From IMG/VR virus record IMGVR_UViG_3300045988_041301, positions 1-49,492 of that record: a DNA stretch of 49,492 bases; one strand, 5' to 3'. The position numbers and the translations under genes were made by a program. Shown here one piece after another: positions 2,694 through 49,492 of this stretch; position 1 is the first letter of the stretch, and each line of letters begins with the position of its first letter. The notes under the pieces were generated by a model. It was not told the origin of the DNA. It made no database searches and worked only from the letters and a program-made list of their open reading frames with translations. Origin of the DNA: a virus.

Positions 2694-3828
2694 CTTCGAT
2701 ACCTCCGTATGTCACGGTCTGGCTTACCAGTTTGGCCACATTGGTTGCTCCGATCACCTGGAAGACTGGCAGCTTGACTTCTACCCTCTTGGCTCCTGCA
2801 GAAACCATCATCTGAATGAGCTGTGAAGGGTTGATGTCTCGGCCGATCTTGCTTCTCTGCCAGATGATATACTGTTCTACCGCCGCGGCCACGTTTGCTT
2901 TGATCGTATCGGCACGCTTTAGGTCGCTGCTGTTGATGTAGTATTTCACATCCAGTTTATAGTCTACTGTGTCCGGAGCTTTGACGGTTACCTTGTCGGT
3001 AAGTGGCCGGATCTGTTCGTCTGCCAGGTAAATCTGCAGGCCCTGGATGATACCTTCCGTTGGAAGTTCTCCGTTCTCTATGATGAATTCAATGATCACT
3101 TCTACCGGGTTATCACTTTTTACCAGAACGTCCGAAATACTTGAATTATAAGTCTTAACCCAGTATCTGTACGCATCCTCCGGGCCGGCTACTGAGTACT
3201 TGGAAGGAGCTATGTACACACGCTCTTTCATGCTGTCATCGTCCTCGATATCAACACCTCCGGCTGTCTTCTCTGTGTTGGCCACGCTGGCCACATAGGG
3301 AATTGGGTTTACCAAGGTATTAATTTCTCCGGGCTGCAGATCGTTTCCTTCGATTCCGGAAGTAAGGCATACGCATTCAACGTCTGCCTTTTCTTCTCCC
3401 GCTTTGATTTCTGCGTACTGTTCCGTCTCGAAGTAGATCTCGCCGTCTGTCACCTGAGTTCCCTGCGGAATCTCTACAGTGTCCGGACGAAGACCTGAAA
3501 GAGTAAAACGCACCATGGTCCTGGCCGGTTTGGCCTGTTCCCTTGCGATTCCCTTCATCGCGGCGGCATGGTCGAGATAGTCTCCGTATGTGTATTTCAG
3601 AAGGTCCATCTTGCCGGCCTTATCAATGTACTTGAATCCTTGGAAAAACTGCACTGCACATGCGTACAGTATCAGGGTTGCCGGATCCGATCTTGCAAGC
3701 ACCAGGTTCTCTCCGGTGATCTCGTTATACTTTTTTTCATAATCACTTTTCAGCTCTGCCTCGATGCTCTCCAGGGTAGTGTTCCCGATAAAACTGACAT
3801 CTGGCAGAATCTCCAGTTCCTTGATCAT
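2686..3828 (-). CDS. Baseplate protein J-like
   Basis: 380 aa. Size, position after the W-like gene and overall sequence pattern match the Baseplate_J family. Confidence 0.75.
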   Translation of the reverse strand: MIKELEILPDVSFIGNTTLESIEAELKSDYEKKYNEITGENLVLARSDPATLILYACAVQFFQGFKYIDKAGKMDLLKYTYGDYLDHAAAMKGIAREQAKPARTMVRFTLSGLRPDTVEIPQGTQVTDGEIYFETEQYAEIKAGEEKADVECVCLTSGIEGNDLQPGEINTLVNPIPYVASVANTEKTAGGVDIEDDDSMKERVYIAPSKYSVAGPEDAYRYWVKTYNSSISDVLVKSDNPVEVIIEFIIENGELPTEGIIQGLQIYLADEQIRPLTDKVTVKAPDTVDYKLDVKYYINSSDLKRADTIKANVAAAVEQYIIWQRSKIGRDINPSQLIQMMVSAGAKRVEVKLPVFQVIGATNVAKLVSQTVTYGGIEDD

Positions 3829-6683: not shown

Positions 6684-9600
6684 TTACGCAAATGATACCC
6701 TGCCCTTATTTCTAAGGTATTCCTTCATCATCTTCTCAAACTCCCTCTGGCTCATGCGGTTTGCATCCTGGATGTCTTTCTTATCCGGGGCGTCCCCGTT
6801 GAACTGATAGGTTGGACTGAATACGAAGGTAGGGTTTGGATCCTTCGGATTTCCCTTCGGATCATTGTTCTGTGTTCCGCTTAAGTCGTGAATAGTTTCC
6901 CTGATCACTGAACTCCTGTTGAACGTCGGCATCTCCAGGCTTTTTGTTCCTGGTGACGCTGCATCCTGAATCGGGGCTGCCAGTGACCGCTGTGCTTCTG
7001 CCTGAATAGCTCCACGCATTCCCTGCATACCAACAACAAGACCCTGTCCGGTGAATTTACCGGATTCCACCATAACCCTTGAAGGTGAGTGAATCTTCAG
7101 GGCGCTGTTGACTGCTGCCGATGCTGCACTGGCTATGCTGGCCGCTGCTGCCATAACGGATCCCCGCATTGCGTTGATACCGTTTACCAGACCGGACATC
7201 ATGTTCACACCTGCACTGTACAGGCTGATTCCAGCAAAGGCTCCGTAGATACCACTGGCGGTGCTTTGTGCGATTCCGAGTGCCTGACTGCATCCGCTGC
7301 TTACTGCAGATACGAGCTGACTCATTCCGGATTGAACTGCAGATACTACCATCGCCATTCCAGACTGCGTGATACTTACAGCCTGGCTGGTTGATGACTG
7401 GACGGCAGATGTTGCCGTTGTGCATCCAGCTGTCACTGTTGCCTGGATCTGCGTAGCTCCGGCAGTAATGGTCGCCGTCATGGTAGTTACAGTTGCCGTT
7501 GTGATCGTGCCGCACTGTGTCATGCTGGTTGTGACAGCTGTCGTGATCAGCGTGAAGGATGCGGTCGATACCGTACCCATGCTGGTGAATCCCGTCTGAA
7601 GAGTGGTCCTCATCGTCGTGATTCCGGTCTGCATGGCCGTCTGCATAAGTGTCATTCCCATCTGCACCGAAGTGCTCCAGGATGTCGTGCTGGTCGTGAT
7701 ACTTGACTGCACGCTTGTCAGCTGTGATGTGATCGTCGCTGATAAACCAGTAAATCCGGTTCCCATGCTCTCCATTGACGTCTTAGCTTCTTCGATACTG
7801 GACTGCAGCGCCTGGACTGCTGAATTGGCCGCCTCAATGGCCGAAGTGTCAACCTGAACGGTCATCTGCTGCGGTTGTGCGCTGGTATTTACCGTCGGCG
7901 CAGAAACTTCTGCAGACTTGCCGCCGCCTGTGATTGCGTCCCAGATACCTCCGAAGAAATCCTTCACTCCCTCCCAGGCACCTTTCACCGCTTCAGCTGC
8001 TGCCGAAGCTCCGGACTTCAGGGTTTCCCAGCCTGCGTCCAGCAGGGAACCGAGACCGTCTCCGATTCCGGATATAGCTGTCGTCATGGCGCTGAATCCG
8101 CCCTGGATCAGTCCTGGCATTGCATCAGCTGCTGCCGAAGCTGCAGACTTCAATGCTTCCCAGCCTGCATCCAGAAGTGAACCAAGAGTTCCGCCTACTG
8201 TCGTGATCGCTGAACCGAGGGCGCTTAATCCTCCGGATACCGCACCAGGCAGCGCATCAACTGCGGCAGAGGCTGCTGTCTTCAGTGCCTCCCAGCCTGC
8301 GTCTAAAAGTGAACCCAGGGTACTTCCTACCGCTGAAATCGCAGTTCCGAGGGCACTTAATCCTCCAGCTACAAGTCCCGGCAGGGCATCAACTGCGGCC
8401 GAAGCTGCAGATTTCAAAAGCTCCCATCCTGAATCCAAAAGTGAACCCAGGGTACTTCCAATTCCGGTTATGACGGATTGCATCATGCTTAATCCGCCGC
8501 TGATCAGTCCCGGAAGGGCACCGGCAGCAGCTGAAGCTGCGCCTTTGATCGTCTCCCAGGCTCCGGACCAGTTCCCATGGATCACATCCATTACAACCGA
8601 TATGATTCCCTGAATAATCGAAAGGCCGCCCTGAATCACAGATGAGATTCCGGACCATACGGTACTTGCTACGTTCTTGATGCTGTCCCAGGATACCTGC
8701 CAGTCAACTCCGATCAGGCTTAAAAATGCGTTGATCACTCCGCAGATTGTAGAACCTACAGTGTTAATCACATTCAGGATAAAGTTCCAGACAGACGACG
8801 TGATCGTCTGGATTCCCTGCATGGCGCCCGACCAGTCTCCACGAATGATCGAGGCTATGGTCTGAATGATTCCGGATATAACTCCGGTTACTGCTGATAT
8901 AGTGTCTGCGATCAGCTGGAATGCTCCGATAAATACCGGTGCCAGCAGACTGCAGAATCCATTCCAGGCTGCTGATAGCACCTGAGTGATATTCTGAAAG
9001 TTAAAACCTAACCCATTCAGGGTTGAAACGATACCCTGACCGAAGCTGCTTATCGTACTCGTGATCTGGTTCCAGATGCCTGTGATGGCACTCCGGAAGC
9101 CTTCATTCGTGTTCCATAAATGAATAAAAGCAGCAGTCAGTACCGCGATGGCTGCGACTGCGATTCCTGCAGGCGATGCGATAGCCTTGAACATACCGCC
9201 GATCTTTCCGAGCCCGCCTTTGGCCAGTGATACGACTGCATTCTTCATTCCTCCTGAATCAATCACGAACTGCTTCGCAATCGACGGGAAGTTTGTCAGC
9301 ACCTGAAAAGCTGTTCCGGCTTTAGAGCCGAGACCCTTCAGTGCCGGTGCAAATGCCTTCACCGCGCTGGTTGCTTTATTGAACACCGGAGCGATCTTCG
9401 CTCCAATCAGGATTAACGGTGCAAATGCCGCCACACCCTGTGAAAGGCTTGCGGTTCCGTTACCGAGGTCTGTGAAGAAGTTGCTTACTCCATCCATGAG
9501 ACCCTGACCGATTGACTGCGCCAGCGTAAGTCCTGCCTGCAGTAATCTCGGCGCCGCCTGGACGATTGCGTCCATGATCTTGCTGATAGCTTCTTCCGTT

Positions 9601-11264
9601 GCTGTGATAAGCTCCGGAGAACCACCGGCCAGACCGTCTGCGATAGCTACGATAGCATCTGTTCCGGCTGTGATCAGCGCCGGGATAAAGTCTCCCAGGC
9701 CCTGTGCCAGCGTGGTTGCGATACTTACGGCCGAGTTTGCGATGCTTGGAAGGTACGACGTGATCCCACTGCTGAACTGGCCGATTACATCCGTAGCCAG
9801 CTTTGTGAGTTCCGGCAGTCTTGAATCCGCCCCCTTCAGGAATTCATCAAGAAGCCGCGTTCCTGTCTGCAGGATCCTTGGCACTATCCTGATGATTCCA
9901 GAGACAAACGAAGCTCCGATCTCCGCAGCTCCGTCTCCGATTGCTCCGGCATTGTTTCTTATTCCTGTCAGGAAGCTGGTTGTCAGCGCCACCGCCATGG
10001 TGACTACCTTTGGTCCGTATTGCGATATCTTGACGATACCGTCAGCCATTACTGATCCGATTTCTCCAACGAATCCGGAGAAGCCACCGGAAACAAGGGC
10101 ATCTGACAGTTTATAAATCTCCTGTGTGCCGTACTGTACCGCCGCTCTGAGAGGTTTATTCAGGTTATCATAGATCTTGATTCCGGTATCCTGAAGAGCC
10201 GACTGGAATATGGCCATGTCACCTTTCAGGTTGTCCAGTTTCGTCTTGGCCATATCCTCCAGAGCGCCATCTGCATTCTGAAGTTCATTAGCCAAGGCAT
10301 CCCACTCGATTGCTCCATCCGCTGTGGTGGCATTTAAACCTTGCAGGAGGTCGTTCAGTGCATCGACGTGCTGTTTTCCACCGATTGCCGCCAGAGCCGC
10401 ATTTCGCTGCTCCTGGGTCATTCCGGCGAGCTTTCCGTTCAGTTCTGTCAGTGTTCCTTTTAAACCCTTGAAGTTTCCCTCACTGTCAAATGCTGACAGA
10501 CCGAGTTTTTCCATCATGGTTCCTGCTTGTCCGGCTCCGGATGTCAGGTTGACCATGATCGCATTCAGGGCATTTCCGGCTTCACTTCCTTTGATACCTC
10601 GGTTTGCCATGACGCCCAGCGCAGTAGCACTCTCTGTGATCGGAACGCCGAGGTTCTTCATGGTACCGCCTACGCCGATGTAGGCTTCCATGAGTTGCTC
10701 TGCAGTTTGATTCGATTTATTATTCGCTTTCGCGCAGATGTTCAGGTAATCAGACAAGCCATCGACGGTGACTCCGCAGGCAGACATGGAATCAGTAACC
10801 AGGTCTGATGTCCTGGCCAGATCAAGCCCTGTCGCTTCTGAAAGTCTCAGGACGGAAGGCAGACCTTTTATGGACTGGTCGACCGTCCAGCCGGCTAGAG
10901 ACATGTACTCAAGTGCCTGAGCTGACTCTGTGGCCGTCTTGGAAGTCTCGCGGCCCATCTGCATGGCCGCGGCTTTTAACTTGTCATATTCTTCCGCCGT
11001 GGCTCCTGCTGTAGCCGCCGTTGATGACATGGCCGCCTCGAAGGTTGAACCAGTCTTAACGCTGGCAGCAGTAACCGCTGCGATGGCAGCGCCGGCAGCT
11101 CCGAGTCCGGCAGCTCCGATCTTTCCGATCGTACTGAGGCCCTTCAGGCCGGCTTTTGCCGCTTTCATGGCTGCGGAGAAGGACTTCTCCAGCTGCCCCG
11201 CGATCTTGATGTTGATCTTGTAATCGCTCACTGTTGTTTGCTCACCTCCTGAAGGTCCTCGCAC
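6684..11264 (-). CDS. Tail tape measure protein
   Basis: 1526 aa, Ala/Gly/Ser/Thr-rich with internal repeats, located after the chaperone pair. An alternative GTG start at 11231 overlaps (GTGA) the stop of the frameshifted chaperone. Confidence 0.9.
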   Translation of the reverse strand: MRGPSGGEQTTVSDYKINIKIAGQLEKSFSAAMKAAKAGLKGLSTIGKIGAAGLGAAGAAIAAVTAASVKTGSTFEAAMSSTAATAGATAEEYDKLKAAAMQMGRETSKTATESAQALEYMSLAGWTVDQSIKGLPSVLRLSEATGLDLARTSDLVTDSMSACGVTVDGLSDYLNICAKANNKSNQTAEQLMEAYIGVGGTMKNLGVPITESATALGVMANRGIKGSEAGNALNAIMVNLTSGAGQAGTMMEKLGLSAFDSEGNFKGLKGTLTELNGKLAGMTQEQRNAALAAIGGKQHVDALNDLLQGLNATTADGAIEWDALANELQNADGALEDMAKTKLDNLKGDMAIFQSALQDTGIKIYDNLNKPLRAAVQYGTQEIYKLSDALVSGGFSGFVGEIGSVMADGIVKISQYGPKVVTMAVALTTSFLTGIRNNAGAIGDGAAEIGASFVSGIIRIVPRILQTGTRLLDEFLKGADSRLPELTKLATDVIGQFSSGITSYLPSIANSAVSIATTLAQGLGDFIPALITAGTDAIVAIADGLAGGSPELITATEEAISKIMDAIVQAAPRLLQAGLTLAQSIGQGLMDGVSNFFTDLGNGTASLSQGVAAFAPLILIGAKIAPVFNKATSAVKAFAPALKGLGSKAGTAFQVLTNFPSIAKQFVIDSGGMKNAVVSLAKGGLGKIGGMFKAIASPAGIAVAAIAVLTAAFIHLWNTNEGFRSAITGIWNQITSTISSFGQGIVSTLNGLGFNFQNITQVLSAAWNGFCSLLAPVFIGAFQLIADTISAVTGVISGIIQTIASIIRGDWSGAMQGIQTITSSVWNFILNVINTVGSTICGVINAFLSLIGVDWQVSWDSIKNVASTVWSGISSVIQGGLSIIQGIISVVMDVIHGNWSGAWETIKGAASAAAGALPGLISGGLSMMQSVITGIGSTLGSLLDSGWELLKSAASAAVDALPGLVAGGLSALGTAISAVGSTLGSLLDAGWEALKTAASAAVDALPGAVSGGLSALGSAITTVGGTLGSLLDAGWEALKSAASAAADAMPGLIQGGFSAMTTAISGIGDGLGSLLDAGWETLKSGASAAAEAVKGAWEGVKDFFGGIWDAITGGGKSAEVSAPTVNTSAQPQQMTVQVDTSAIEAANSAVQALQSSIEEAKTSMESMGTGFTGLSATITSQLTSVQSSITTSTTSWSTSVQMGMTLMQTAMQTGITTMRTTLQTGFTSMGTVSTASFTLITTAVTTSMTQCGTITTATVTTMTATITAGATQIQATVTAGCTTATSAVQSSTSQAVSITQSGMAMVVSAVQSGMSQLVSAVSSGCSQALGIAQSTASGIYGAFAGISLYSAGVNMMSGLVNGINAMRGSVMAAAASIASAASAAVNSALKIHSPSRVMVESGKFTGQGLVVGMQGMRGAIQAEAQRSLAAPIQDAASPGTKSLEMPTFNRSSVIRETIHDLSGTQNNDPKGNPKDPNPTFVFSPTYQFNGDAPDKKDIQDANRMSQREFEKMMKEYLRNKGRVSFA
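7975..8620 (-). repeat. Five in-frame tandem repeats of 132 bp (44 aa) inside the tape measure gene
   Basis: The anchor word cccagcctgc (or a variant) recurs at 8027, 8159, 8291, 8423 and 8555, exactly 132 bp apart. The protein repeat is ALPGL.(S/A)GGLSA...GSTLGSLLDAGWE.LK.AASAA.D. Confidence 0.85.
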
Positions 11265-19961: not shown

Positions 19962-21815
19962 TTATACCCAGTGTTCATTTGCCCGGATCCAGTTTTCTTC
20001 CGGAGTTTCCTGCTGTTCTTCCTGCTGTCTCTGAAGCTGTTCTTTTCGCTCAGCTTCCACCTGCAGATGAAGCATACGGACTCCGAGGATATCCGCAGCG
20101 GCCAGGCTGTACACCTCACAGTCAAGATAGTGGTTATCTATGTGCGAATGTTTCGGTCTCCATCGCTGCACTATTCTGGATCCTGATTTTTCATTGACTT
20201 TATGCTCGGAAGTAACCTGTTCGGCATACTCCCGGTCGCACCCCTCATAAACCATCCAGGCGCCTTTTCCATTATCCTTCCGCATCCTGGACGCGATCAT
20301 GTCCTTGTACTTGTCGCCATCGACCAGAACCAGGTTCATCCCGTATGCCTTGCTGTCAACCTTGTTAATCTTCGAGGTTTTGAAGTGCGACATCATCGGA
20401 TTACTGGCGCCTTTGACGGGCATGGCCCATTCGGAATTTGTCGCACAGAAGTCGTAGGTGCTGTCTGCGTCGTATCCTGAATCGATCAGACACAGGGAAA
20501 CGATGACCTGTTCCCCGGATTCTGTGAGGTACGGGGTGTTCATGGTGCTTTCAATGTCCTGAAACGATAACGCCTGACCATGCGCGATGTTTTGGCTGGT
20601 GATATACGGCCCCCAGGCTCGTATCGTCCAGTACAGACAGGTTTCCTGAACATCCACTCCTGCAGTCAGGTATCTGGCCCAGGAAGGGACTACAAGCTGC
20701 GGCAGGTCTGTCTGCCTCTCCATGACCATGTCTGCGTCCGTCTTTAACTTTGTGTCCTCCCATGGCTCTGCCAGCCAGGAGTTTACAAAGTTCTGAAGAA
20801 GATCGGGGTTATCCTTGCTGTCAAGGAATTCCTTCACGATTTCAGAGAATCGGACGAACGGTGAGTACAGTGTGTTAATCCAGAAAGCGACTTTCTTGCT
20901 TGCTTTCGTGTTCCTGCGGACCTCCCGCCACTCTCCGTACCGGATCATGTTGTCACGATCCTGATCAGTGATCTTGCAACCGCATTCCTGGCAGACGTAG
21001 ACGGCCATATCGGCACGTTCTGAATTATCCAGATCGTCTCCGCTTGGAAAGCGCAGGTTACTGAATTTCAGTTCTATGTACTCCCCACAATGCGGGCATG
21101 GTACAAAGTAATGCTTTTCAATGTCCGCGCCTTGCAGGGCCTGCCAGATATGCCCGGTCTGCAAAGTAGGGGTGCTTGTCATGTATATCTTTCTCTGATT
21201 CGTGAACGTCTTGGTACGTTCCCTGGCCAGCCTGATAGGGTCCGCTTCCTTTTTGCTGGCTCCTGGGTATTTATCTACCTCATCAAGAAAAAGATATTTG
21301 ATTGCCTTCGATGCCAGTGCGGATGGGCTGTTGGCACCGTTAAGGCTCAGATACATTCCATCGAACTGAAGCTCCAGTTTCGATGATTCGTTTTCGTTGT
21401 ACAGCTTACGCAGTGGCTTGCTGGCTCTGATCATTGGCTCCAGTCGGTTCTTGCTTATGCTCTCCGCCAGGGTATCTGTCGGGTATACGATAAGCGTCGG
21501 TGACGGGTCCTGCTGAATGACATAGCCGAGCATATTCTGCATTGCCTCGGTTCCGCCTACCTGGGACGGCTTACAGAAGATGATTTCTTCTGTGTCGTAA
21601 TTGATAAATTCATCCATGATCTCCTTCAGATATGGAGTCTTCTCATTTCGCCAGGGACCAGGCATGGCCGATGTTTTTGAGTCCAGCATTCTGTACTTCT
21701 CGGCCCACTCGGATACTGTGAGGTTTTCCGGAGGCTGCAGCTGCCGCATGGCCTCCTTCTGGTATTCCGCAACGCTATATTTGCGGATCTGAATTCTTTT
21801 TCTTTTTAGTTCCAT
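19962..21815 (-). CDS. Terminase large subunit (GpA family)
   Basis: 617 aa with N-terminal PPENLTVSEWAEKYR, a Walker-like KPSQVGGTE motif and the zinc motif CPHCGEYIELKF. Confidence 0.9.
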   Translation of the reverse strand: MELKRKRIQIRKYSVAEYQKEAMRQLQPPENLTVSEWAEKYRMLDSKTSAMPGPWRNEKTPYLKEIMDEFINYDTEEIIFCKPSQVGGTEAMQNMLGYVIQQDPSPTLIVYPTDTLAESISKNRLEPMIRASKPLRKLYNENESSKLELQFDGMYLSLNGANSPSALASKAIKYLFLDEVDKYPGASKKEADPIRLARERTKTFTNQRKIYMTSTPTLQTGHIWQALQGADIEKHYFVPCPHCGEYIELKFSNLRFPSGDDLDNSERADMAVYVCQECGCKITDQDRDNMIRYGEWREVRRNTKASKKVAFWINTLYSPFVRFSEIVKEFLDSKDNPDLLQNFVNSWLAEPWEDTKLKTDADMVMERQTDLPQLVVPSWARYLTAGVDVQETCLYWTIRAWGPYITSQNIAHGQALSFQDIESTMNTPYLTESGEQVIVSLCLIDSGYDADSTYDFCATNSEWAMPVKGASNPMMSHFKTSKINKVDSKAYGMNLVLVDGDKYKDMIASRMRKDNGKGAWMVYEGCDREYAEQVTSEHKVNEKSGSRIVQRWRPKHSHIDNHYLDCEVYSLAAADILGVRMLHLQVEAERKEQLQRQQEEQQETPEENWIRANEHWV

Positions 21816-22362
21816 CTACATCTTCCGGGCCCACGACGCCAGCAACTACGAAGGCGCCCAGGAGCCGATTGACCTCGCTGGCCAGTTCCTTTTCCAGATG
21901 CCGGGCTTCCGTTGGGTCTATGCCACCTGAAAGCATCCCGATGATTCTGGACGGGAGCGATGTTGCGAACTTCTTAAAAGCAACGAAAAACTTTGCATAA
22001 TCGAGCTTTACTTCCTCGATGGAAATGTACTTACCAGCTGCGATCTCGGTCTTTAACCGGTGCAGCTCTCCCTGGGATTCTTTGAGAGCAACGTCAGCCT
22101 TCATCTTTTGCTCTCTGAGTTCCACTTCCTTTTCTGAGCGTCCAGCTTTCCCGTATGCCTTTTCAGACAGGTACTTGATGTAGCTCTGGATTGTTGGAAC
22201 CAGGTCATATCTGCGGACCGTATGACCGTCTTCCAGGATCTTTGTGGTGGATATAATTCCCTCCTGAGTCAACTGCTGCACTCTCCGGACGCTGACCCCG
22301 AAAAGCTGAGCAATTACTTCTGTTCTGTAGAGGCTTCCTTTGACTTCACCGTTCTCGGCCAT
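21775..22362 (-). CDS. Terminase small subunit (HTH, Nu1-like)
   Basis: The N-terminal HTH is IAQLFGVSVRRVQQLTQEGII, followed by RRYDLVPTIQSYIKYL. I use ATG 22362; the track uses TTG 22365. A G9 run lies 7 nt upstream. Confidence 0.65.
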   Translation of the reverse strand: MAENGEVKGSLYRTEVIAQLFGVSVRRVQQLTQEGIISTTKILEDGHTVRRYDLVPTIQSYIKYLSEKAYGKAGRSEKEVELREQKMKADVALKESQGELHRLKTEIAAGKYISIEEVKLDYAKFFVAFKKFATSLPSRIIGMLSGGIDPTEARHLEKELASEVNRLLGAFVVAGVVGPEDVDGTKKKKNSDPQI

Positions 22363-22398
22363 CAAAATACCCCCCCCCTAGCAACATTGACTCTTCAC

Positions 22399-23763
22399 TC
22401 ATAGCTGCAGGTTCAGGCCTGGATCCGATAAGCGGATGGCCTTTTCCCCTGTATATTCTTCCCACCTGCGGACGATTACGTCACAGAACTTCTCGTCAAG
22501 CTCCATCAGGTAAGCTGTGCGGTTCAGCTGCTCCGCTGCCATGAGGGTGGAACCACCGCCTCCGAACAGGTCAGTGACATTCCATCCTGGTTTACTGGAA
22601 TTCTTCATAAGTCTTCCGATCAGCGGTACCGGCTTCATGGTTGGATGGATGTCGTTTCTTAAAGGTTTATTCTCAAATAAGACCGTAGTCTGATCTTTGA
22701 ACGCCTCCCGAATCTGTTCGATGTATGTAATCAGGTCTTTTTTCTTCATGGATTCGAGATCCAGTTCCTCATCCATGAAAACCGTAGCCTGTGTACGGTC
22801 ATTAATGAAATAATGACCAGCGCCTTCCTTCCACCCGTATAGAACAGGTTCGTGAATCCACTGGTAATCACTCCGGCCTAATACAAATGAGTTCTTTTCC
22901 CATATCAGGCACTCGCTCAGCTTCAGACCAGCTTCTCTGAATGCCCGCCTGAAAGTTTCGCCGTGTGAATCGGAGTGAAATACATAAATCGCGGCGCCTG
23001 GCTGCATGATGCTGACTGCTGAGCTATAAGCGTCAAAGAGAAAGTCGTGGAAGCTTTCCTCGTCCATGTCGTCATTCTGAATAGATGACTGTCCCTGTCC
23101 CCTTCCGGAATCTTTCATAAATTCCGTTTTTCCACCATAATTGACGTTATACGGAGGGTCTGTGATGATAAGATCTGCCATTTCTCCGGCCATCAGTTCC
23201 GCTATATCGGACTGAGATGTGCTGTCTCCGCACATTAACCGGTGGCGGCCTAAAAGCCAGATATCTCCCCTCTTAGTAACCGGTTCGATGATCTTTTCAT
23301 ATTCTTCTTCCGGATTGAAGTCATCATCTTCGGCTTTGGCATCCTTCTCAAGGTCAACACAGAGATCTTCCAGCTCGCTCGTGGAGAATCCGGTTGCTGC
23401 CAGATCGTATTCATTCAGCTCTAAATCAAGAAGCAGATCTCTGAGTTTCAGTTCATCCCAGCGGCCAGTGATCTTGTTCAGGGCCACGTTGGCCTGTTTC
23501 TCTTTTCCTTTGTCTCTGATATTGAGAACAACAACCTCTGCTTCCTCAATTCCGAGGTCCATCATAACTGTGCGGCGCTGATGGCCCTTTATAATGGTTC
23601 CGTCGTAGTTGATTACTATGGGATCCAGATATCCGTTCTCTTCAATGCTGCATTTTATGTCCTGATATTCTTTGTCCTCCGGTTGGAGCGGAACCCTTGG
23701 GTTGTATTCCGCAGGTTTCAGGTCTGAAAGCCTCCGGCGCTCCATTTTCATGCAATCTCCCAT
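22399..23763 (-). CDS. ParB-like nuclease domain fused to a DNA methyltransferase
   Basis: The start is ATG 23763 with an AGGAAGGAGG RBS. The ParB-like N-terminus carries IIKGHQRR and the methyltransferase motif IV is IITDPPYNVNY. Confidence 0.85.
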   Translation of the reverse strand: MGDCMKMERRRLSDLKPAEYNPRVPLQPEDKEYQDIKCSIEENGYLDPIVINYDGTIIKGHQRRTVMMDLGIEEAEVVVLNIRDKGKEKQANVALNKITGRWDELKLRDLLLDLELNEYDLAATGFSTSELEDLCVDLEKDAKAEDDDFNPEEEYEKIIEPVTKRGDIWLLGRHRLMCGDSTSQSDIAELMAGEMADLIITDPPYNVNYGGKTEFMKDSGRGQGQSSIQNDDMDEESFHDFLFDAYSSAVSIMQPGAAIYVFHSDSHGETFRRAFREAGLKLSECLIWEKNSFVLGRSDYQWIHEPVLYGWKEGAGHYFINDRTQATVFMDEELDLESMKKKDLITYIEQIREAFKDQTTVLFENKPLRNDIHPTMKPVPLIGRLMKNSSKPGWNVTDLFGGGGSTLMAAEQLNRTAYLMELDEKFCDVIVRRWEEYTGEKAIRLSDPGLNLQL

Positions 23764-23940
23764 GGTTTTTCCTCCTTCCTGGGGGATTCTCGGGCAAGCG
23801 TAACGAAATAAGGAAAAAATTTTTGCTCGCATCCGGGAAAGAACCGGGCCTTCCCCGCCCCGTGGGCCGTAGGGGGCCTGGGTAGTACCTAAGCCCTGCC
23901 GCACTGGCCGGGTGGCCTTCTTCCACAGATGTCTGAAAGC

Positions 23941-23972
23941 AAAACAAAAGAGACAGCCTCTCGACTGTCTCT
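23941..23972 (-). terminator. Strong intrinsic terminator upstream of the late operon
   Basis: The minus strand reads AGAGACAG-tcgagagg-CTGTCTCT followed by TTTGTTTT. This is an 8-bp stem, an 8-nt loop and a T tail. Confidence 0.75.
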
Positions 23973-24100
23973 CTCTACGAGCTGGTGGGCCGGGGTGTTG
24001 CCCTGCCTTGCTCGTCCTCTCTCACTCTCTTGCCACGCTACCACTATAGCACAGTTGGATGTCTCAGTGTGTCTCATGTTTAAGAGGGTGATCCTCTGCA

Positions 24101-24384
24101 CCTGCGCTTCCTGCTGCCTGGCCCCTGGCCTGCCTCGTCCCTCTGCTGCCTCGCTTGCCCTGCGTGCCGTGTGGCTCTGTCTGCTGTGCGTGGTGTGTGT
24201 GCCTGGTCTGCTGTGTCTCCCTGCTTCCTGACTGGCCCTGCGCTCTGGCCCTGGCATGCCCTGCCTCACTGTGCCTGTGCTGTCTGTCCTTGCCCTGGCT
24301 GTTGTGTGGCCTGGCCTGTCCTGACTGGACTTGTTCCCTGCTGCCTGGCCCCTGCTGCCTTCTCCCTCTGCTCTGGCTGCGGCT
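24101..24384. other. Strand-asymmetric tract almost free of A on the + strand (T/U on the - strand), non-coding
   Basis: Direct count gives 0 A in 24101..24230 (130 nt) and 5 A in 24101..24384 (284 nt). The tract is rich in CTG, CCTG and GCC words. An exact 18-nt repeat lies at 24110..24127 and 24337..24354. Confidence 0.9.
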
Positions 24385-24580
24385 ATCCATCTGAAGGTAA
24401 GCCCTGTATATTCCTGGGCGGATATCTGGCCCCGTCTACCGGAGTGTCTTCTTTTGTACGCCTGGCTCTGACCCATGGCCTACTGTGTTCCCTGCATGGC
24501 GTTCTGCTGGTGCTGTGCTGCAGCTACGGTCTTGAGCTGCTGCCCTGTTACTGCCTACTGCCCTGCCTGCTTCACTCCGG

Positions 24581-24610
24581 AATAAAAGCCCGGATGCACC
24601 GAGCTTTTAT
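24581..24610 (-). terminator. Hairpin terminator after the sigma-like gene
   Basis: The minus strand reads AGCTCGG-tgcat-CCGGGCT (7 bp with one G-U pair) followed by TTTATT. T-rich sequence flanks both sides, so it may work in both directions. Confidence 0.55.
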
Positions 24611-24659
24611 TTTCCTGAAAAAATTCCTGAAAATATTTTCCGGGTTATACCCCCGGGTG

Positions 24660-25184
24660 TCACTTTTTCCAGAATTTTTTCCTGGCCATTTTCTGAGCCA
24701 GATGTTTCTGGTAAACTGCCCTGTTCTCATCTACGATATCCAGGACTCCATCCTGCTGCAGGAGATAGTTAAGCGCTGCATTGTAACGCTTATTGCACTG
24801 GCTCCGGCTCATGTAGATGCCATCCGCTATGTCCTTCCAGTCTTCCATGTCCAGATGCCTGCGTTCCATGATCTCTCGTTCCAGGGACGTCTCCGGCAGC
24901 AGCTCTAATAAGTCCATGGTCTTTTCGATCGAGAGGCTGACGTTGTACTTCTGCTTCTCGATTCTCTCTTCGATGCTGGACTGCTTCACTACCAGGTTGG
25001 CTGTGCCATCGCCATGGTCTCCGGTGGTCCTGCGGCCACGCCCCTGTGCTCCTGGTGCGGATCGCATATCACACTTCAAATTCTCAAGCCTCCGATCCAG
25101 CTGGCCCTTGCGGCGCTTCGCCCGATAGATCTGTTCCAGAACGAACTTCAATATTTCTCTATCTTCTTTTTCGTCCCTGTCCAT
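24660..25184 (-). CDS. Sigma-70 region-4-like / ArpU-RinA-type late transcription regulator
   Basis: The start is ATG 25184 (AAGAGAGG RBS). The C-terminal segment LLELLPETSLEREIMERRHLDMEDWKDIADGIYMSRSQCNKRYNAALNYL has a sigma r4-type HTH pattern. It is the last gene before the late operon. Confidence 0.55.
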   Translation of the reverse strand: MDRDEKEDREILKFVLEQIYRAKRRKGQLDRRLENLKCDMRSAPGAQGRGRRTTGDHGDGTANLVVKQSSIEERIEKQKYNVSLSIEKTMDLLELLPETSLEREIMERRHLDMEDWKDIADGIYMSRSQCNKRYNAALNYLLQQDGVLDIVDENRAVYQKHLAQKMARKKFWKK

Positions 25185-25189
25185 GGGTC

Positions 25190-25438
25190 TTACCTCTCTT
25201 TCCGCTGTGCGAAGAAGTAGCACTTTCCTCCCAGCTGTCTAAATTGCACCAGGTGTCTGTCCTTGTCTTCCCAGTCCTTGATTTCAATCCCTTTTTCGTG
25301 TAAGATGTCCACCGTACTCTCAAGGCTTGCCAGGAGCGCCGGTACCGGCATCTGAAGAAGAAAGTTCTTCAAATATGCCGGCTGACTGAGCGGCGGACGG
25401 AATATCTTCTCAGTTTTCTGTTTCAGTTTCTTCTTCAT
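25190..25438 (-). CDS. Hypothetical protein
   Basis: 82 aa ORF in the operon. Confidence 0.4.
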   Translation of the reverse strand: MKKKLKQKTEKIFRPPLSQPAYLKNFLLQMPVPALLASLESTVDILHEKGIEIKDWEDKDRHLVQFRQLGGKCYFFAQRKER

Positions 25439-26785: not shown

Positions 26786-27517
26786 TCAGGCCGGAGCCAT
26801 TGCAGGAGCTTCCTCGAACGCCATCTGATCAGCTGGTGCCGCTGCCTCCTGGCCTGCTTCTTTAAAAATCTGCTTTCTTCCATCCGGGTCTTCCATAAAA
26901 TGACTTGCTTCCTGATCAGCATTGTGAAGAAGAAGTACCAGCGGATACAGTTCGCAGCTGGCGTTGAATGCCTGGATCTCGTTATAGCTGCAGTCTCCCA
27001 TTCCCATATGCCATCTGATTGCATATCTTTCTTCCATGGAGAGTTTCATGAACTCTTCCACCATCATGACGGATTTTTCTCCATGCCCATATGGATTCTT
27101 ATCTTCAACCGCATATGCTGGCACCACCTGCCAGTCAAACCTGCCGCCGGCATCTCTCTTGGATCCTTTGTCGTTATACACTTTTTTGTTCCGATATTCG
27201 ACTGTATAGAAGTTGGTCTTGCAGATATCATGGAGCAGGGAGACTACAGCCAGAGTTCCCTGGCTAAAGGACGCCACACTCTTTCCGGCTACCATGTAGT
27301 GATACTCTCCATCATCCAGCATCTGCAGTCTTCCGATCAGCGCGTCGTAGACATTCAGGCTGTGCTGCAACAGGCCACCCTCGCATGATAAATGAAAGCG
27401 GGTGCTTGCCGGAGCTGTATAAAAGTCACTTTTTCTGATGTAATTCATTAACCGGTCAAATCCCGGGCGATCTGATACGCTCTGCATCAATTCTTCAAAT
27501 CTTTCTTTGTCTGTCAT
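26786..27517 (-). CDS. HD-domain phosphohydrolase
   Basis: RFHLSCEGGLLQHSLNV, VSLLHDICK and GHGEKS form an HD superfamily pattern. The RBS is GGGAGGATG. Confidence 0.8.
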   Translation of the reverse strand: MTDKERFEELMQSVSDRPGFDRLMNYIRKSDFYTAPASTRFHLSCEGGLLQHSLNVYDALIGRLQMLDDGEYHYMVAGKSVASFSQGTLAVVSLLHDICKTNFYTVEYRNKKVYNDKGSKRDAGGRFDWQVVPAYAVEDKNPYGHGEKSVMMVEEFMKLSMEERYAIRWHMGMGDCSYNEIQAFNASCELYPLVLLLHNADQEASHFMEDPDGRKQIFKEAGQEAAAPADQMAFEEAPAMAPA

Positions 27518-47359: not shown

Positions 47360-47745
47360 TAAAGTTCACCTCCCAGGGATGCGATGACTAAGTCATCAAC
47401 TGTACTGCTGAGTTCCTTGTTGGCAGCAGTTAAAGTCTGCACTGTCTGCTGCAGGATCTCGATCTCAGTAAGCGGCTCACCGGCTGCTTCAGATTCTTTG
47501 GCCTTCTGAAGCCAGGCATCAAAGGAAGCCTGGACGCTTTCTTCCAGTCCTTCTCTGTAGTAGGTTTCCACCTCGTACCGGTCATAGGTGAAGTAGGTGG
47601 ACGGCTCCTGATCCGCGCCGTTGTCTTTTGTGAACGGGCCGGCGACATTGTCATACAGGATTACAGTGCAGACTGTTCCCTCCTTCTTCGGGAAGGCTTC
47701 GATTTCAAGCTGCACAGATGGCTTTACATTGCTTTCTGTTCTCAT
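47359..47745 (-). CDS. Hypothetical protein in XkdW position (acidic, C-terminal coiled coil)
   Basis: 128 aa. It overlaps the RT 3' end by 41 nt and is followed by XkdX. Confidence 0.5.
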   Translation of the reverse strand: MRTESNVKPSVQLEIEAFPKKEGTVCTVILYDNVAGPFTKDNGADQEPSTYFTYDRYEVETYYREGLEESVQASFDAWLQKAKESEAAGEPLTEIEILQQTVQTLTAANKELSSTVDDLVIASLGGEL

Positions 47746-48871
47746 TGCTTACTACTCCTTTCAATACTTTGAAGTTTATAAACGGCTGGATCCACTTCTC
47801 ATAGAATCCGGTGGAGTCTGAATGATCCATGTATCCTTTGTAGCTGATCATGCCGGAGGCGTTGGTCACTGAGGCATAGCCATTTCTGGCTATCGTCCTG
47901 GCTTTACGTGATATCCTATACAGAATTGACTTCCGAAGCGTTACTTTACCGCTTGTATGGAACTTAAAACCTAAGAAGTCAAGCGGGCGAATCCGTAAGT
48001 GAAACACCTGCCAGTTGCCCTTCAGCTTCATCTGCATGCTTTGCAGATATTCTCCAACCGTCCTGATCGCTGCATGCAGTCGTTTCTTCGAATTGTCAAA
48101 CAGGACCATATCATCGACGTATCTCGCGGAATGATTGAGACCACACTTCTCTGCGATCAGGTGATCTAAGTCCTGAAAGAAAAAATTTAAAAACCAGGGG
48201 GATGTGTACAGTCCAACTGGAATACCTACCGCAGTGTCTTCCGGCAGCATCTGCGTCTTGTTTGCCATGGCCTGCTGATAGCTGGCTATGATCTTAAAGG
48301 CAAGCCGCAGGAATCTCCTGTCTTTGATGCGCTTCTCCAGTTTCAGGCGAAGCTGCTCATGTGGCAGCGTTGGATAGCACTGTTTCACATCCAGGACGCC
48401 GACTTTGCTCGTTCCTTTTGGATCATTTACGATCCAACGCTTTATAACCTTCCTGGCTCCGTCGGTTCCTTTTCCTGGTACGCATCCGCAGCTATGCTCG
48501 TAGGAGCCATGTTCTACGACTTTCTTAAATACCAGGACAAATGCGTGATGAATGCACTGATCTGGAAAGAAGCGCGGCACTGCGATGATGCGTTTCTTTT
48601 TCTTTATGCCATCGTTGATCTCTCGGATGTGGTAAGCGTGCGGTATCCAACTCTCTGTTTTCAGAATCTCCTGCAGCTTCTTTGCGTATTTATCGACGTC
48701 CAGCAGAATCCTTCTGACTGATGGCCGGTCACTTTTGCGCTTTGCTGCGTTTCTGATCGCCAGCTTGATATTATCCAGGTCTACCACTCTCTCGAAGAGA
48801 TGACCGATTCTCTTTGTGAATTTTATTGGTTCAGTTATCATTGGTATATTTAATCTCTTTGTTAGCCTCAC
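47705..48871 (-). CDS. DGR reverse transcriptase
   Basis: The motifs are SCGCVPGKGTDGA, IPVGLYTSPWFLN and YVDDMVLF. It lies 170 nt downstream of the TR on the same strand. Start is GTG 48871 or ATG 48841. Confidence 0.9.
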   Translation of the reverse strand: MRLTKRLNIPMITEPIKFTKRIGHLFERVVDLDNIKLAIRNAAKRKSDRPSVRRILLDVDKYAKKLQEILKTESWIPHAYHIREINDGIKKKKRIIAVPRFFPDQCIHHAFVLVFKKVVEHGSYEHSCGCVPGKGTDGARKVIKRWIVNDPKGTSKVGVLDVKQCYPTLPHEQLRLKLEKRIKDRRFLRLAFKIIASYQQAMANKTQMLPEDTAVGIPVGLYTSPWFLNFFFQDLDHLIAEKCGLNHSARYVDDMVLFDNSKKRLHAAIRTVGEYLQSMQMKLKGNWQVFHLRIRPLDFLGFKFHTSGKVTLRKSILYRISRKARTIARNGYASVTNASGMISYKGYMDHSDSTGFYEKWIQPFINFKVLKGVVSNENRKQCKAICAA

Positions 48872-49041
48872 CGGCTTTCAATCGTGCTACTAACCGGTGC
48901 CATTTACGGCCCATTTTCACCAAGCGGTGCGGCACCATGACTCTGCATGGCGGTGGCTCTATGGCCAGCGAATAAAGGAACGACATATTTATAAAAACCA
49001 AAAATTGAGAAATATGTCGAAAATGAGATTATTAACAAAGT

Positions 49042-49148
49042 GGGCGACCGCCGATGTTCCAGTTCGCATTCCCAGCCGAGTTGTTGCAGTTCCGGTTGAA
49101 CGGGCCCGAGTTCGTGCCGTTGTTCACGTTACCACCCGAGATGACCAC
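49042..49148 (-). repeat. DGR template repeat (TR), 107 bp
   Basis: It aligns without gaps to 49337..49443. In the target reading frame it carries 10 AAC, 1 AAT and 2 ATC codons, with 25 adenines on the minus strand. Confidence 0.92.
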
Positions 49149-49283
49149 CGATCGCGCGTTCCTTTATCCCCATATATTTACAAGTTACTTTTTATTATGT
49201 TTCCGACATTTATATCGGGAACATAATCTCGCAGGGGCAAGGGCTCCCGGCATGCATGTGTTACGGTTCCTTTGCCGGAAGCT

Positions 49284-49305
49284 CCGGGGGAGAAAAGTCC
49301 CCCGG
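49284..49305 (-). promoter_or_regulatory. GC hairpin 31 nt downstream of the VR (candidate DGR target-recognition hairpin/cruciform)
   Basis: CCGGGGGA-(6-nt loop)-TCCCCCGG, an 8-bp perfect stem with no T-run after it on the minus strand. Confidence 0.45.
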
Positions 49306-49320
49306 TCCCCCTTGAAATGG

Positions 49321-49492
49321 CTACTTTCTAGCTTGAGGGCGACCGCCGATGTCCCAGTTCGCAATCCCAGCCGAGTAGTCGCAGTACCGGGAGAACGGGC
49401 CCGAGGTCGTGCCGTAGAACACGCGACCACCCGAGAAGACCACTTCTCCGCCTTCGGCGGCATAATAGTAATCGCAGAAGTAGGTATTGCTG
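49321..49492 (-). CDS. 3' end of the tail-fibre / DGR target gene (last 38 codons plus stop, plus the duplicated 55 nt)
   Basis: The frame continues from nt 1 and reads ...EVVFSGGRVFYGTTSGPFSRYCDYSAGIANWDIGGRPQARK*, with the stop at 49321..49323. The full ORF is 631 codons. Confidence 0.85.
   Translation of the reverse strand, partial: SNTYFCDYYYAAEGGEVVFSGGRVFYGTTSGPFSRYCDYSAGIANWDIGGRPQARK
49337..49443 (-). repeat. DGR variable repeat (VR), 107 bp
   Basis: It has 14 mismatches to the TR, all at TR adenines (coding strand). All 82 non-A positions are identical. Confidence 0.92.
49438..49492. repeat. Terminal 55-nt direct repeat (copy of 1..55)
   Basis: See the feature at 1..55. Confidence 0.95.

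Follow-up and report, generated by a model that had tools for sequence, protein, structure and literature searches.

A T-less non-coding tract, conserved in composition and not in sequence, upstream of the late promoter and cos site of Epona-like phages

The virus record IMGVR_UViG_3300045988_041301 (IMG/VR) was analyzed over its full length of 49,492 nucleotides (nt), here called the window. Its first and last 55 nt (1-55 and 49438-49492) are identical, so the window represents a circularly assembled, complete phage genome of ~49.4 kb. Its closest named relative is Faecalibacterium phage FP_Epona. Between the gene of a late transcriptional activator and the late operon, the genome carries a non-coding tract almost free of A on the + strand, that is, of T on the sense (−) strand. 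We show that the composition of this tract is conserved among related phages and its sequence is not. It is a cis element defined by composition, and it forms part of the right-end control region of Epona-like cos phages.

The T-less tract and its genomic setting

Read along the sense strand, the locus begins with the activator gene, a bidirectional terminator, a T-poor and then T-less tract, the late promoter and a terminated leader. A cosQ-like box, a 12-nt cosN, cosB-like boxes and the genes for a ParB-methyltransferase, TerS and TerL follow (Table 1). The genes flanking the gap are all on the − strand. As originally predicted, the gap (23764-24659) is the largest stretch without a plausible open reading frame (ORF) in the window's ORF list, and two terminators, at 24581-24611 and 23975-23946 (−), bracket the region between the late regulator and the late operon.

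Direct counting on the + strand gave 5 A in the 284 nt of the core tract, equivalent to 5 T on the sense strand, and none at all across 24101-24230 (130 nt). A weaker bias continued to about 24580, with 23 A in the 196 nt of the distal part (11.7%, compared to 20.1% window-wide). These recounts reproduced the figures of the original prediction. The longest A-free run outside the tract was 52 nt, and 284-nt windows elsewhere held a minimum of 31 A (mean 57, standard deviation 10.8). By arithmetic from the measured composition, the chance expectation for a 130-nt A-free run, at 20% A and in 49 kb, is ~2.5e-9. Scanning the + strand of the window for exclusion of C, G or T revealed nothing of like extent.

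On the sense strand, the tract is composed of 38% G, 31% A, 29% C and 1.8% T. Both repeats reported for it earlier are present, an exact 18-nt repeat at 24110 and 24337, and a TCCTGACTGG repeat at 24226 and 24319.

Table 1 Coordinates of the control region, the packaging genes and the retroelement in the window, with the evidence for each feature.
Feature	Position	Strand	Evidence
Core T-less tract (A-less on +), non-coding	24101-24384	−	Counts, cross-family Markov score, periodicity, folding
Distal, decayed T-poor part, same grammar as core	24385-24580	−	11.7% T; +22.7 bits at 24492-24571
Late transcriptional activator gene (RinA/ArpU-like, 187 aa)	24660-25223	−	phrog_36, E 1e-14; phrog_248 'transcriptional activator'
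Bidirectional intrinsic terminator ending the early/activator operon	24581-24611		13-nt inverted repeat, 92% complementary, 5-nt loop, flanking A-run and T-run
Two direct GAGACA repeats, start-to-start 10 nt, probable activator site	24060-24075	−	Identical in L004 despite unrelated upstream sequence
Extended −10 TGC-TATAGT, followed by conserved GGTAGCGTGG	24043-24051	−	Block conserved, flanks not
Late leader RNA of ~100 nt ending in an intrinsic terminator	23937-24038	−	Hairpin 23975-23946 and U-run; predicted transcription start
Conserved TAGGTACTACC box, 20 nt upstream of cosN, cosQ-like by position	23881-23891	−	In the pattern recovering 58 viral and 16 genomic loci
cosN, 12-nt cohesive end GGGCGGGGAAGG	23849-23860	−	Contig ends; near-invariance in 22 families; gpA-type TerL
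A5T6 run and ATTTCGTTACGC box, cosB-like by position	23798-23824	−	Conserved in all recovered loci; beside packaging genes
First late gene, ParB-N fused to a beta-class N6/N4 DNA methyltransferase	22399-23763	−	PF01555, 6e-27; PF02195, 4e-4
TerS candidate	21775-22365	−	Position and Epona annotation
TerL, lambda gpA type	19962-21815	−	PF05876 and PF20454, 1e-80 and 2e-72
Reverse transcriptase	47705-48871	−	Retroelement
RT-18 RNA	48855-48929	−	Rfam
Template repeat; variable repeat	49148-49042; 49443-49337	−	15/15 differences at template adenines; only such pair in the window

Occurrence and conservation in related phages

Related loci were collected with a pattern of cos boxes (58 viral contigs), a second pattern (25 more) and a TerL search (80 more), together with 16 prophage loci in named genomes. 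Scored for T-free segments, the 700 nt upstream of cos reached a median best value of 84 over 76 loci and a maximum of 219, the latter belonging to the window. By comparison, segments free of A, C or G scored 21-23, and the other ~8.8 kb of each locus scored 28-41. In the TerL-anchored set, which is unbiased with regard to motifs, the tract was found in 22 of the 44 loci with enough upstream DNA. In all of these it occupied the same strand, and its end lay between 130 and 400 nt upstream of cos (in most cases 200-290 nt). Tract-bearing prophages were detected in metagenome-assembled genomes of Faecalibacterium, Lachnospiraceae and a rabbit Oscillospiraceae, as well as in an isolate, the cultured lysogen Clostridium sp. 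OF03-18AA, whose tract is 220 nt long.

The tracts represent at least 16 families without BLAST similarity between them. Those of L100 and L126, with 284-285 nt, have nothing in common with the 284-nt tract of the window. Tract lengths range from ~80 to 350 nt, the motif flavour differs family by family, and turnover is rapid, by substitution, slippage and duplication. In the best-sampled family (24 sequences), nucleotide diversity was 0.10 in the tract versus 0.016 across promoter, leader and cos, and the tract had indels of 1, 2, 4, 5, 7, 8, 23, 24 and 47 nt. Moving upstream from the promoter, T content in the families increased from 2-3% over 100 nt to 5-7%, then 11-13%, and finally 16-20% beyond 250 nt. 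Syntenic relatives that keep the composition and lose the sequence agree with the original proposal of a constraint acting on the nucleic acid of a non-coding region.

Some relatives have other DNA in the same slot. In an alignment of the gap with three viral contigs from relatives, unrelated AT-rich sequence replaced the tract in L004 (activator 85% identical). Near-identity to the window resumed at TAAAc/gATGAGACACACTGAGACAT..TGTGCTATAGTgGTAGCGTGG, corresponding to the GAGACA repeats, the extended −10 and the conserved initial transcribed block. In L004 and L053, the slot is filled by a ~480-nt AT-rich insert holding a 105-nt C-free stretch (477-582 nt upstream of the ATTTCGTTACGC anchor).

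In L010 (IMGVR_UViG_3300037453_001199), a T-poor tract is found 30 nt from cosN. This contig has partition-like genes (read by eye) upstream of cos and TerL directly downstream, with no methyltransferase and no obvious late promoter. L010 and L099 suggest that the tract is linked to the cos side. The TGTGCTATAGTRGTARCGTGG motif of the late promoter occurred in 29 viral contigs, each time alongside this cos and never without it, so that the tract's association with the promoter and its association with cos are inseparable.

Shared sequence grammar

The sequence grammar was derived from 23 family representatives, amounting to 4.2 kb of tract with 2.4% T. As observed/expected ratios on the sense strand, CA (~2.0), AG (~1.4), GC (~1.25) and GG (~1.15) were over-represented, and CC (~0.65), GA (~0.55), AA (~0.5) and CG (~0.3) under-represented. 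These deviations were consistent in nearly every family; the same steps had ratios of 0.84-1.16 on the genome-wide sense strand. The favoured words were CAG, GCA, CAC, AGG, ACA and GGC. Two rules, no T and no A after a purine, reproduce this grammar: with A barred after purines, it is forced after C, which in turn depletes CG and CC.

A first-order Markov model, trained on other families only, was scored per 80 nt over both strands of the window. It gave +43, +32 and +23 bits, all inside 24145-24571, and at most +6 elsewhere (genome mean −52, standard deviation 18).

Several words recur in the tracts. CAGGGC is present in 47 copies in the 4.2 kb and in 19 of the 23 families, and GCAGGGCA in 11 of the 23. 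In the window, 10 of the 28 genome-wide sense-strand copies of CAGGGC fall in the 700-nt gap. GGACA, which resembles the promoter repeats, is enriched about two-fold, and the Shine-Dalgarno-like GGAGG and AGGAG are mildly depleted.

Recurrent words of this kind, together with TATA(T/G)AGGGCA units in the spacer of relatives, would fit a degenerate array of same-orientation binding sites, with a core of ~(C)AGGGCA or RGACA, on which a DNA-binding protein of phage or host (TerS, the late activator or a repressor, for example) builds a nucleoprotein structure beside the late promoter and cos. Repeat arrays flank packaging sites in other viruses. We nevertheless consider such an array rather improbable, because the CAGGGC enrichment is marginal against a composition-matched null and CAGGGCA is itself a chain of favoured dinucleotide steps. 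A search for k-mers shared by 11 families found nothing convincing, with CAGGGC and GCAGGGC marginal against a first-order Markov null (z ~3.5). A test in 22 families returned GCAAGG, CCACGCA and GGCAAGGC as enriched, and CAGGGC was not among the top words. The enrichment of these three is probably residual relatedness, and they are scarce in the window's own region, with only 2 copies of GCAAGG in the 700-nt gap. No helical or other period and no preferred motif spacing was found in the tracts, and an array would leave the T-lessness between the motifs unexplained.

The TATA(T/G)AGGGCA units occur just upstream of the tract in L054 (~3180-3350) and L038, 4-5 of them in the same orientation, for example CCCCTATATAGGGCAG and CCCCCATATATGGGGCAGG. 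Their counterparts in the window, at 24385-24480, are TATACAGGGC and TAACAGGGCAG. They could be protein sites or weak promoters. Column-by-column inspection of the spacer of one group of relatives (group A) showed conserved TATA-GGGCA units and no −35/−10 pair.

Selection against T or mutation

T makes up 14-19% of the four-fold degenerate sites of the phage genes, about ten-fold more than in the tracts. The window's own tract, with 1.8% T, likewise lies below the synonymous level, in line with the earlier claim that T is avoided even at would-be synonymous third bases. The adjacent spacer of relatives has 21% T; its diversity figure is inflated by one divergent member. The CA excess in the tracts (+362) balances the combined deficit of CG and CC (−355). 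TG occurs only 44 times, making it 18-fold rarer than CA despite strong CpG loss. Among minor alleles, 13 were C>T and 31 were G>A, a 2.4-fold difference. Low T, few TG and scarce C>T favour the removal of T by selection, or an extreme mutational strand bias.

A neutral or nearly neutral origin has to be weighed here. In this scenario, slippage-prone units of the CAG, CAGG, CA or GAA type would expand as a minisatellite in a permissive slot, oriented by replication direction, with the distal part older and decaying. The stability of CTG.CAG repeats in E. coli does depend on their orientation relative to replication. Internal duplications and short tandem arrays, a segmental duplication within the tract of one group (group C), the many indel sizes, the family-specific motif flavour and the rise of T away from the promoter all fit such a history. 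So do the dispensability of the tract in relatives and allele-frequency spectra that do not separate T-creating variants. However, random duplication and deletion cannot hold T at 2.4% against a neutral level of 14-21%, nor do they account for 16 or more families that lack T on one and the same strand, at a matching position, with one grammar seen nowhere else in the genome. The rarity of TG relative to CA and the lack of repeat periodicity also speak against it, and we regard a minisatellite as unlikely, though worth serious consideration.

Late promoter, leader and cos site

The activator had no Pfam or NCBIfam match. Its Epona homologue is annotated as a sigma factor, and the gene was first labelled 'sigma-like'. 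Its PHROG matches are to transcriptional regulators or activators, and we describe it as RinA/ArpU-like.

The original prediction saw no sigma-A type promoter in the gap, took the tract as a possible late leader and likened the layout to lambda PR'-6S-tR'. The gap does hold an extended −10 (TG at 24051-24050 and TATAGT at 24048-24043), preceded by the two GAGACA repeats, and analogous paired repeats precede the −10 element in other families. The predicted unit of promoter, leader and terminator resembles PR'-6S-tR', so the likeness holds for the gap. It does not extend to the tract: the conserved promoter block (24075-24043) is downstream of it, and the leader (~24038-23937) is a separate segment. 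The tract was accordingly rejected as a late leader. Leaders from five families fold alike, with a 5' domain and a terminal hairpin bearing a U-run (z −2.2 to −3.5).

Directly after the late −10, a second −10-like hexamer, TAGCGT, lies within GGTAGCGTGG (24031-24042, −) and is conserved across families. It resembles the sigma-dependent pause inducer of lambda PR'.

The segment between the leader terminator and the methyltransferase gene is the cos site. A 42-kb contig (L003) ends with ...GCGCGGGGAAGG, and the first bases of L088/L065, L079, L098, L132 and L150, independent contigs from other samples, are exactly G[GC]GCGRGGAAGG. Filled-in cohesive ends would give the 12-nt overlap seen between such contig ends. 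Several further contigs end within ~200 nt of cosN, 1.85-2.07 kb upstream of TerL. The tract had also been proposed as the cos or terminase recognition region. The genome ends map 240 bp away from it, to cosN at 23860-23849, and the cos boxes are nearly invariant, whereas the tract is unalignable between families. The NCBIfam matches of the methyltransferase were to adenine-methyltransferase families, below the cut-offs.

Located 240-530 bp from the right end of the virion DNA, the tract has its T-less strand running 5'->3' toward that end. The packaging direction and the overhang polarity are assigned by analogy with lambda only. In lambda, RecBCD enters the right end of a cut cos and reads the 3'-ending strand, and the relative orientation of cos and Chi follows a rule. 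The phage tract might by analogy be a polar, Chi-like element or recombination hotspot. Several Chi-like words close to the end, on its T-less, G-run-bearing 3'-ending strand, would attenuate AddAB or RecBCD entering at the right cos end and limit the capture of CRISPR (clustered regularly interspaced short palindromic repeats) spacers from the end injected first. The position would suit this role: counted from the right end, the tract starts 180-240 bp in for 17 of the 22 families, as soon as non-essential DNA is reached. Its strict polarity, the enrichment of GG and depletion of CC on the 3'-ending strand, and its accessory, fast-evolving nature would suit it too, and the Firmicute Chi words AGCGG and GAAGCGG are T-free. 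Even so, the odds seem poor. No word is common to all families beyond what composition gives (the best, CAGGGC/AGGGC, is barely above it). The known Chi words AGCGG, GAAGCGG and GCGCGTG, including those of Bacillus and Staphylococcus, are absent from the window's gap, and a host Chi word was not found in the literature. Moreover, a Chi array needs no total exclusion of T, and the packaging direction and overhang polarity it presupposes come from the lambda analogy.

Coding potential, RNA structure and repeats

All three sense frames are open across the tract, and late genes of relatives do contain T-free coding linkers. The tract could in principle encode a disordered hydrophilic protein, for which T-free codons would supply K, N, T, R, S, Q, H, P, E, D, A and G only. 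We judge this highly improbable. A 3-nt periodicity was absent in every family (p = 0.06-0.99), whereas coding T-free linkers of 90 nt gave p ≤ 0.001. Close relatives differ by frame-breaking indels whose lengths are not multiples of 3. Neither ATG has a ribosome-binding site, as had been said of the overlapping ORFs, and these ORFs overlap the conserved promoter and, in one frame, also the terminator. A Pfam search with the overlapping tract ORFs gave a single sub-threshold match, to NRDE-2 (17.5 bits against a cut-off of 34).

The T-free coding stretches in the late genes of relatives are 55-200 nt long and encode acidic, Pro- or Gln-rich linkers with clear codon periodicity. Relative to the anchor, they were located at +5605..+5808 in L075 and +5511..+5609 in L030/L039.

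Known and structured RNAs were likewise rejected as candidates. Rfam searches at the gathering threshold and at E ≤ 10 returned only RT-18, distant from the tract, and a tRNA search found none. The tract folds no better than dinucleotide or mononucleotide shuffles on either strand (z = −0.8 and −1.05), and no consistent trend was seen in 12 families. The earlier suggestion of a protein sponge with CAGGA/AGGGA motifs was contradicted for a GGA sponge of the CsrA type: GGA occurs 91 times where 151 are expected (0.6x, across families), and never in a hairpin loop. A tandem micro- or minisatellite with a regular unit was also rejected, as there was no autocorrelation peak at lags 2-40 and only local arrays of 2-3 copies.

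Transcription of the tract would yield a U-less RNA. Since rU:dA hybrid pairs are weak, an RNA without them might form a persistent R-loop, which could prime replication or modulate the late promoter. The T-less sense strand with 66-72% purine would favour such a hybrid, and some relatives have iteron-like repeats just upstream. On the other hand, no promoter was found, the skew of G versus C changes sign between families (+0.14 to −0.15), a GC content of 62-68% makes a poor unwinding element, and the tract is dispensable in relatives. We regard an R-loop, proposed originally together with a strand-asymmetric DNA element, as very unlikely.

A complete diversity-generating retroelement spans the window ends (47705-49443, −). 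Its template and variable repeats differ at adenines only, and the tract has a length like that of variable regions, which raises the idea that self-templated, adenine-specific mutagenic homing of a + strand RNA eroded every A. There is next to nothing to recommend this origin. The tract has no template-repeat partner, and its polymorphisms are not adenine-specific. The retroelement RNAs are − strand, where the tract is A-rich; no RT-18-like RNA lies nearby; and cDNA synthesis on a + strand RNA would place the strict zone at the opposite end. A single-protein search with the reverse transcriptase gave only 10 close loci, too few to assess its co-occurrence with the tract.

Comparison with known elements

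The tract is real, conserved and defined by composition, and it matches no described element family. The literature was searched for phage elements lacking T or U and for Chi in Clostridia, and nothing comparable emerged; together with the Rfam search, which matched nothing in the tract, this upholds the original statement that no described element has such a composition.

Lambda provides the closest landmarks. As here, its packaging and structural operon is preceded by a late promoter, a short, structured leader RNA and a strong intrinsic terminator, which together make up the PR'-6S-tR' unit. In contrast, the phage unit (24075-23937) lies downstream of the tract, its promoter is ~185 bp from cosN, and its regulator is RinA/ArpU-like and not Q. 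The cos sites are comparable in organization (cosQ-cosN-cosB), with a gpA-type TerL, a G-rich 12-nt end (GGGCGGGGAAGG; GGGCGGCGACCT in lambda) and contig ends overlapping by 12 nt. The tract is polar and located just inside the end where RecBCD enters in lambda; lambda has no T-less tract, though, and the phage families have no Chi-like word in common.

In herpes simplex virus, the DR2 array of the 'a' sequence (unit GGGGGAGGAGCG) is a GC-rich array of variable copy number with one T-less strand, beside the terminase cleavage site. It lies next to pac1/pac2, is dispensable for cleavage and recombinogenic, and the virus uses the same lineage of packaging machine. This is a resemblance only, as DR2 is a regular 12-bp tandem, whereas the phage tract is aperiodic, has another grammar, and does not adjoin cos, with a promoter and a terminator in between.

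The injection-stop region of phage T5 is a large non-coding cis region near the first-injected end (bioRxiv 10.1101/866236). Like the tract, it is a large untranslated region close to the genome end presumed to enter first. It differs in being sequence-conserved and rich in palindromes, inverted repeats and DnaA boxes, whereas the tract is variable and palindrome-free.

Expandable strand-asymmetric repeats include CAG.CTG, CAGG.CCTG, GAA.TTC and CA.TG, as well as the minisatellite core GGGCAGGANG. The tract shares their word stock (CAG, CAGG, GGCAGG), a T-less purine-rich strand and length change by slippage. Unlike them, it is not regular, it occupies one locus in one orientation across many families and hosts, and its T is far below neutral. 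With the CsrA/RsmA sponges, the tract shares a non-coding, purine-rich nature and some AGGGA and CAGGA words; it differs in its under-represented GGA and in having no promoter found for it.

Possible function of the tract

Our tentative reading is that the tract is a signal-free, nuclease-refractory spacer in the direction of late transcription, selected for its composition; we hold it as a possibility rather than a probability. Since every A:T pair is oriented alike, a −10 hexamer or a palindrome with A and T can occur on neither strand, and operators or restriction sites of that kind would be excluded. A sense transcript of the tract would have no start codon, stop codon or U-tract. RNase Y is the main decay-initiating nuclease of Firmicutes, and the transcript would also lack the G|A, AU-rich context that this enzyme prefers. 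Descriptions of RNase Y targets give a GA dinucleotide, with U at −2/−3, in a context rich in AU and poor in GC (bioRxiv 10.1101/2023.03.12.532304; PMC4608709), of which the tract is the mirror image. Nothing would thus start, stop or be cut in the 100-300 bp ahead of the late promoter and cos, and the lethal late operon would stay dependent on the activator and the leader terminator. The constant position and strand, the common grammar, the non-coding character, the depletion of T, its greatest strictness beside the promoter and the mild scarcity of Shine-Dalgarno-like words fit this reading.

Several observations weigh against the reading of the tract as a signal-free spacer. The tract lies behind a good terminator, and scans upstream of the tracts in three families revealed no consistent sigma-70 promoter that could feed it; effects at the RNA level may hence never come into play. 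To keep out −10 hexamers or start and stop codons, not every T would have to go, and the neighbouring spacer of relatives accommodates 21% T together with several TATA-like boxes. The few Ts left in the tracts do not avoid ATG/GTG or TAA/TAG/TGA contexts, and for this reason T itself, rather than codons or −10 hexamers, seems to be the target of the constraint. Allele frequencies did not differ between T-creating and other variants, making the polymorphism evidence for selection weak. The grammar may just reflect a degenerate array of CAGGGCA- or CACAG-like units. Lastly, L004/L053 and L011 keep the promoter and cos without the tract, so any role of it is accessory and dispensable.

The tract may represent a new class of cis element in phages of gut Clostridia, although we consider this less likely than not: a U/T-less, RA-step-poor tract inside the first-ejected end and before the late promoter, working through a base-by-base property of one strand. 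That property might be a transcript that resists RNase Y, termination and translation, or a 3'-ending DNA strand able to disarm defence systems or nucleases that enter at the end, with fast turnover as part of the function.

If the tract is functional, selection can keep one base out, and preserve a dinucleotide grammar, across hundreds of nucleotides of drifting sequence. A composition-held signal of this kind is invisible to homology- and covariation-based searches, and the composition model can now serve to look for similar tracts in further phage groups. The locus also provides landmarks for prevalent Faecalibacterium and Oscillospiraceae phages, namely cos with its 12-nt end, an activator-dependent late promoter and a 6S-like terminated leader. 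These phages have been linked to inflammatory bowel disease viromes (PMC5883640).

Other features of the phage genome

Among the early genes, no base-modification or dUTPase-type functions were recognised. The early region encodes an HD-domain metal-dependent phosphohydrolase (26786-27517, −; phrog_28876, E 3e-34). An ORF of 1526 aa (6684-11264, −), probably a tape-measure or tail protein, contains three tandem copies of a 132-nt unit at 7978-8453, which are 70-71% identical.

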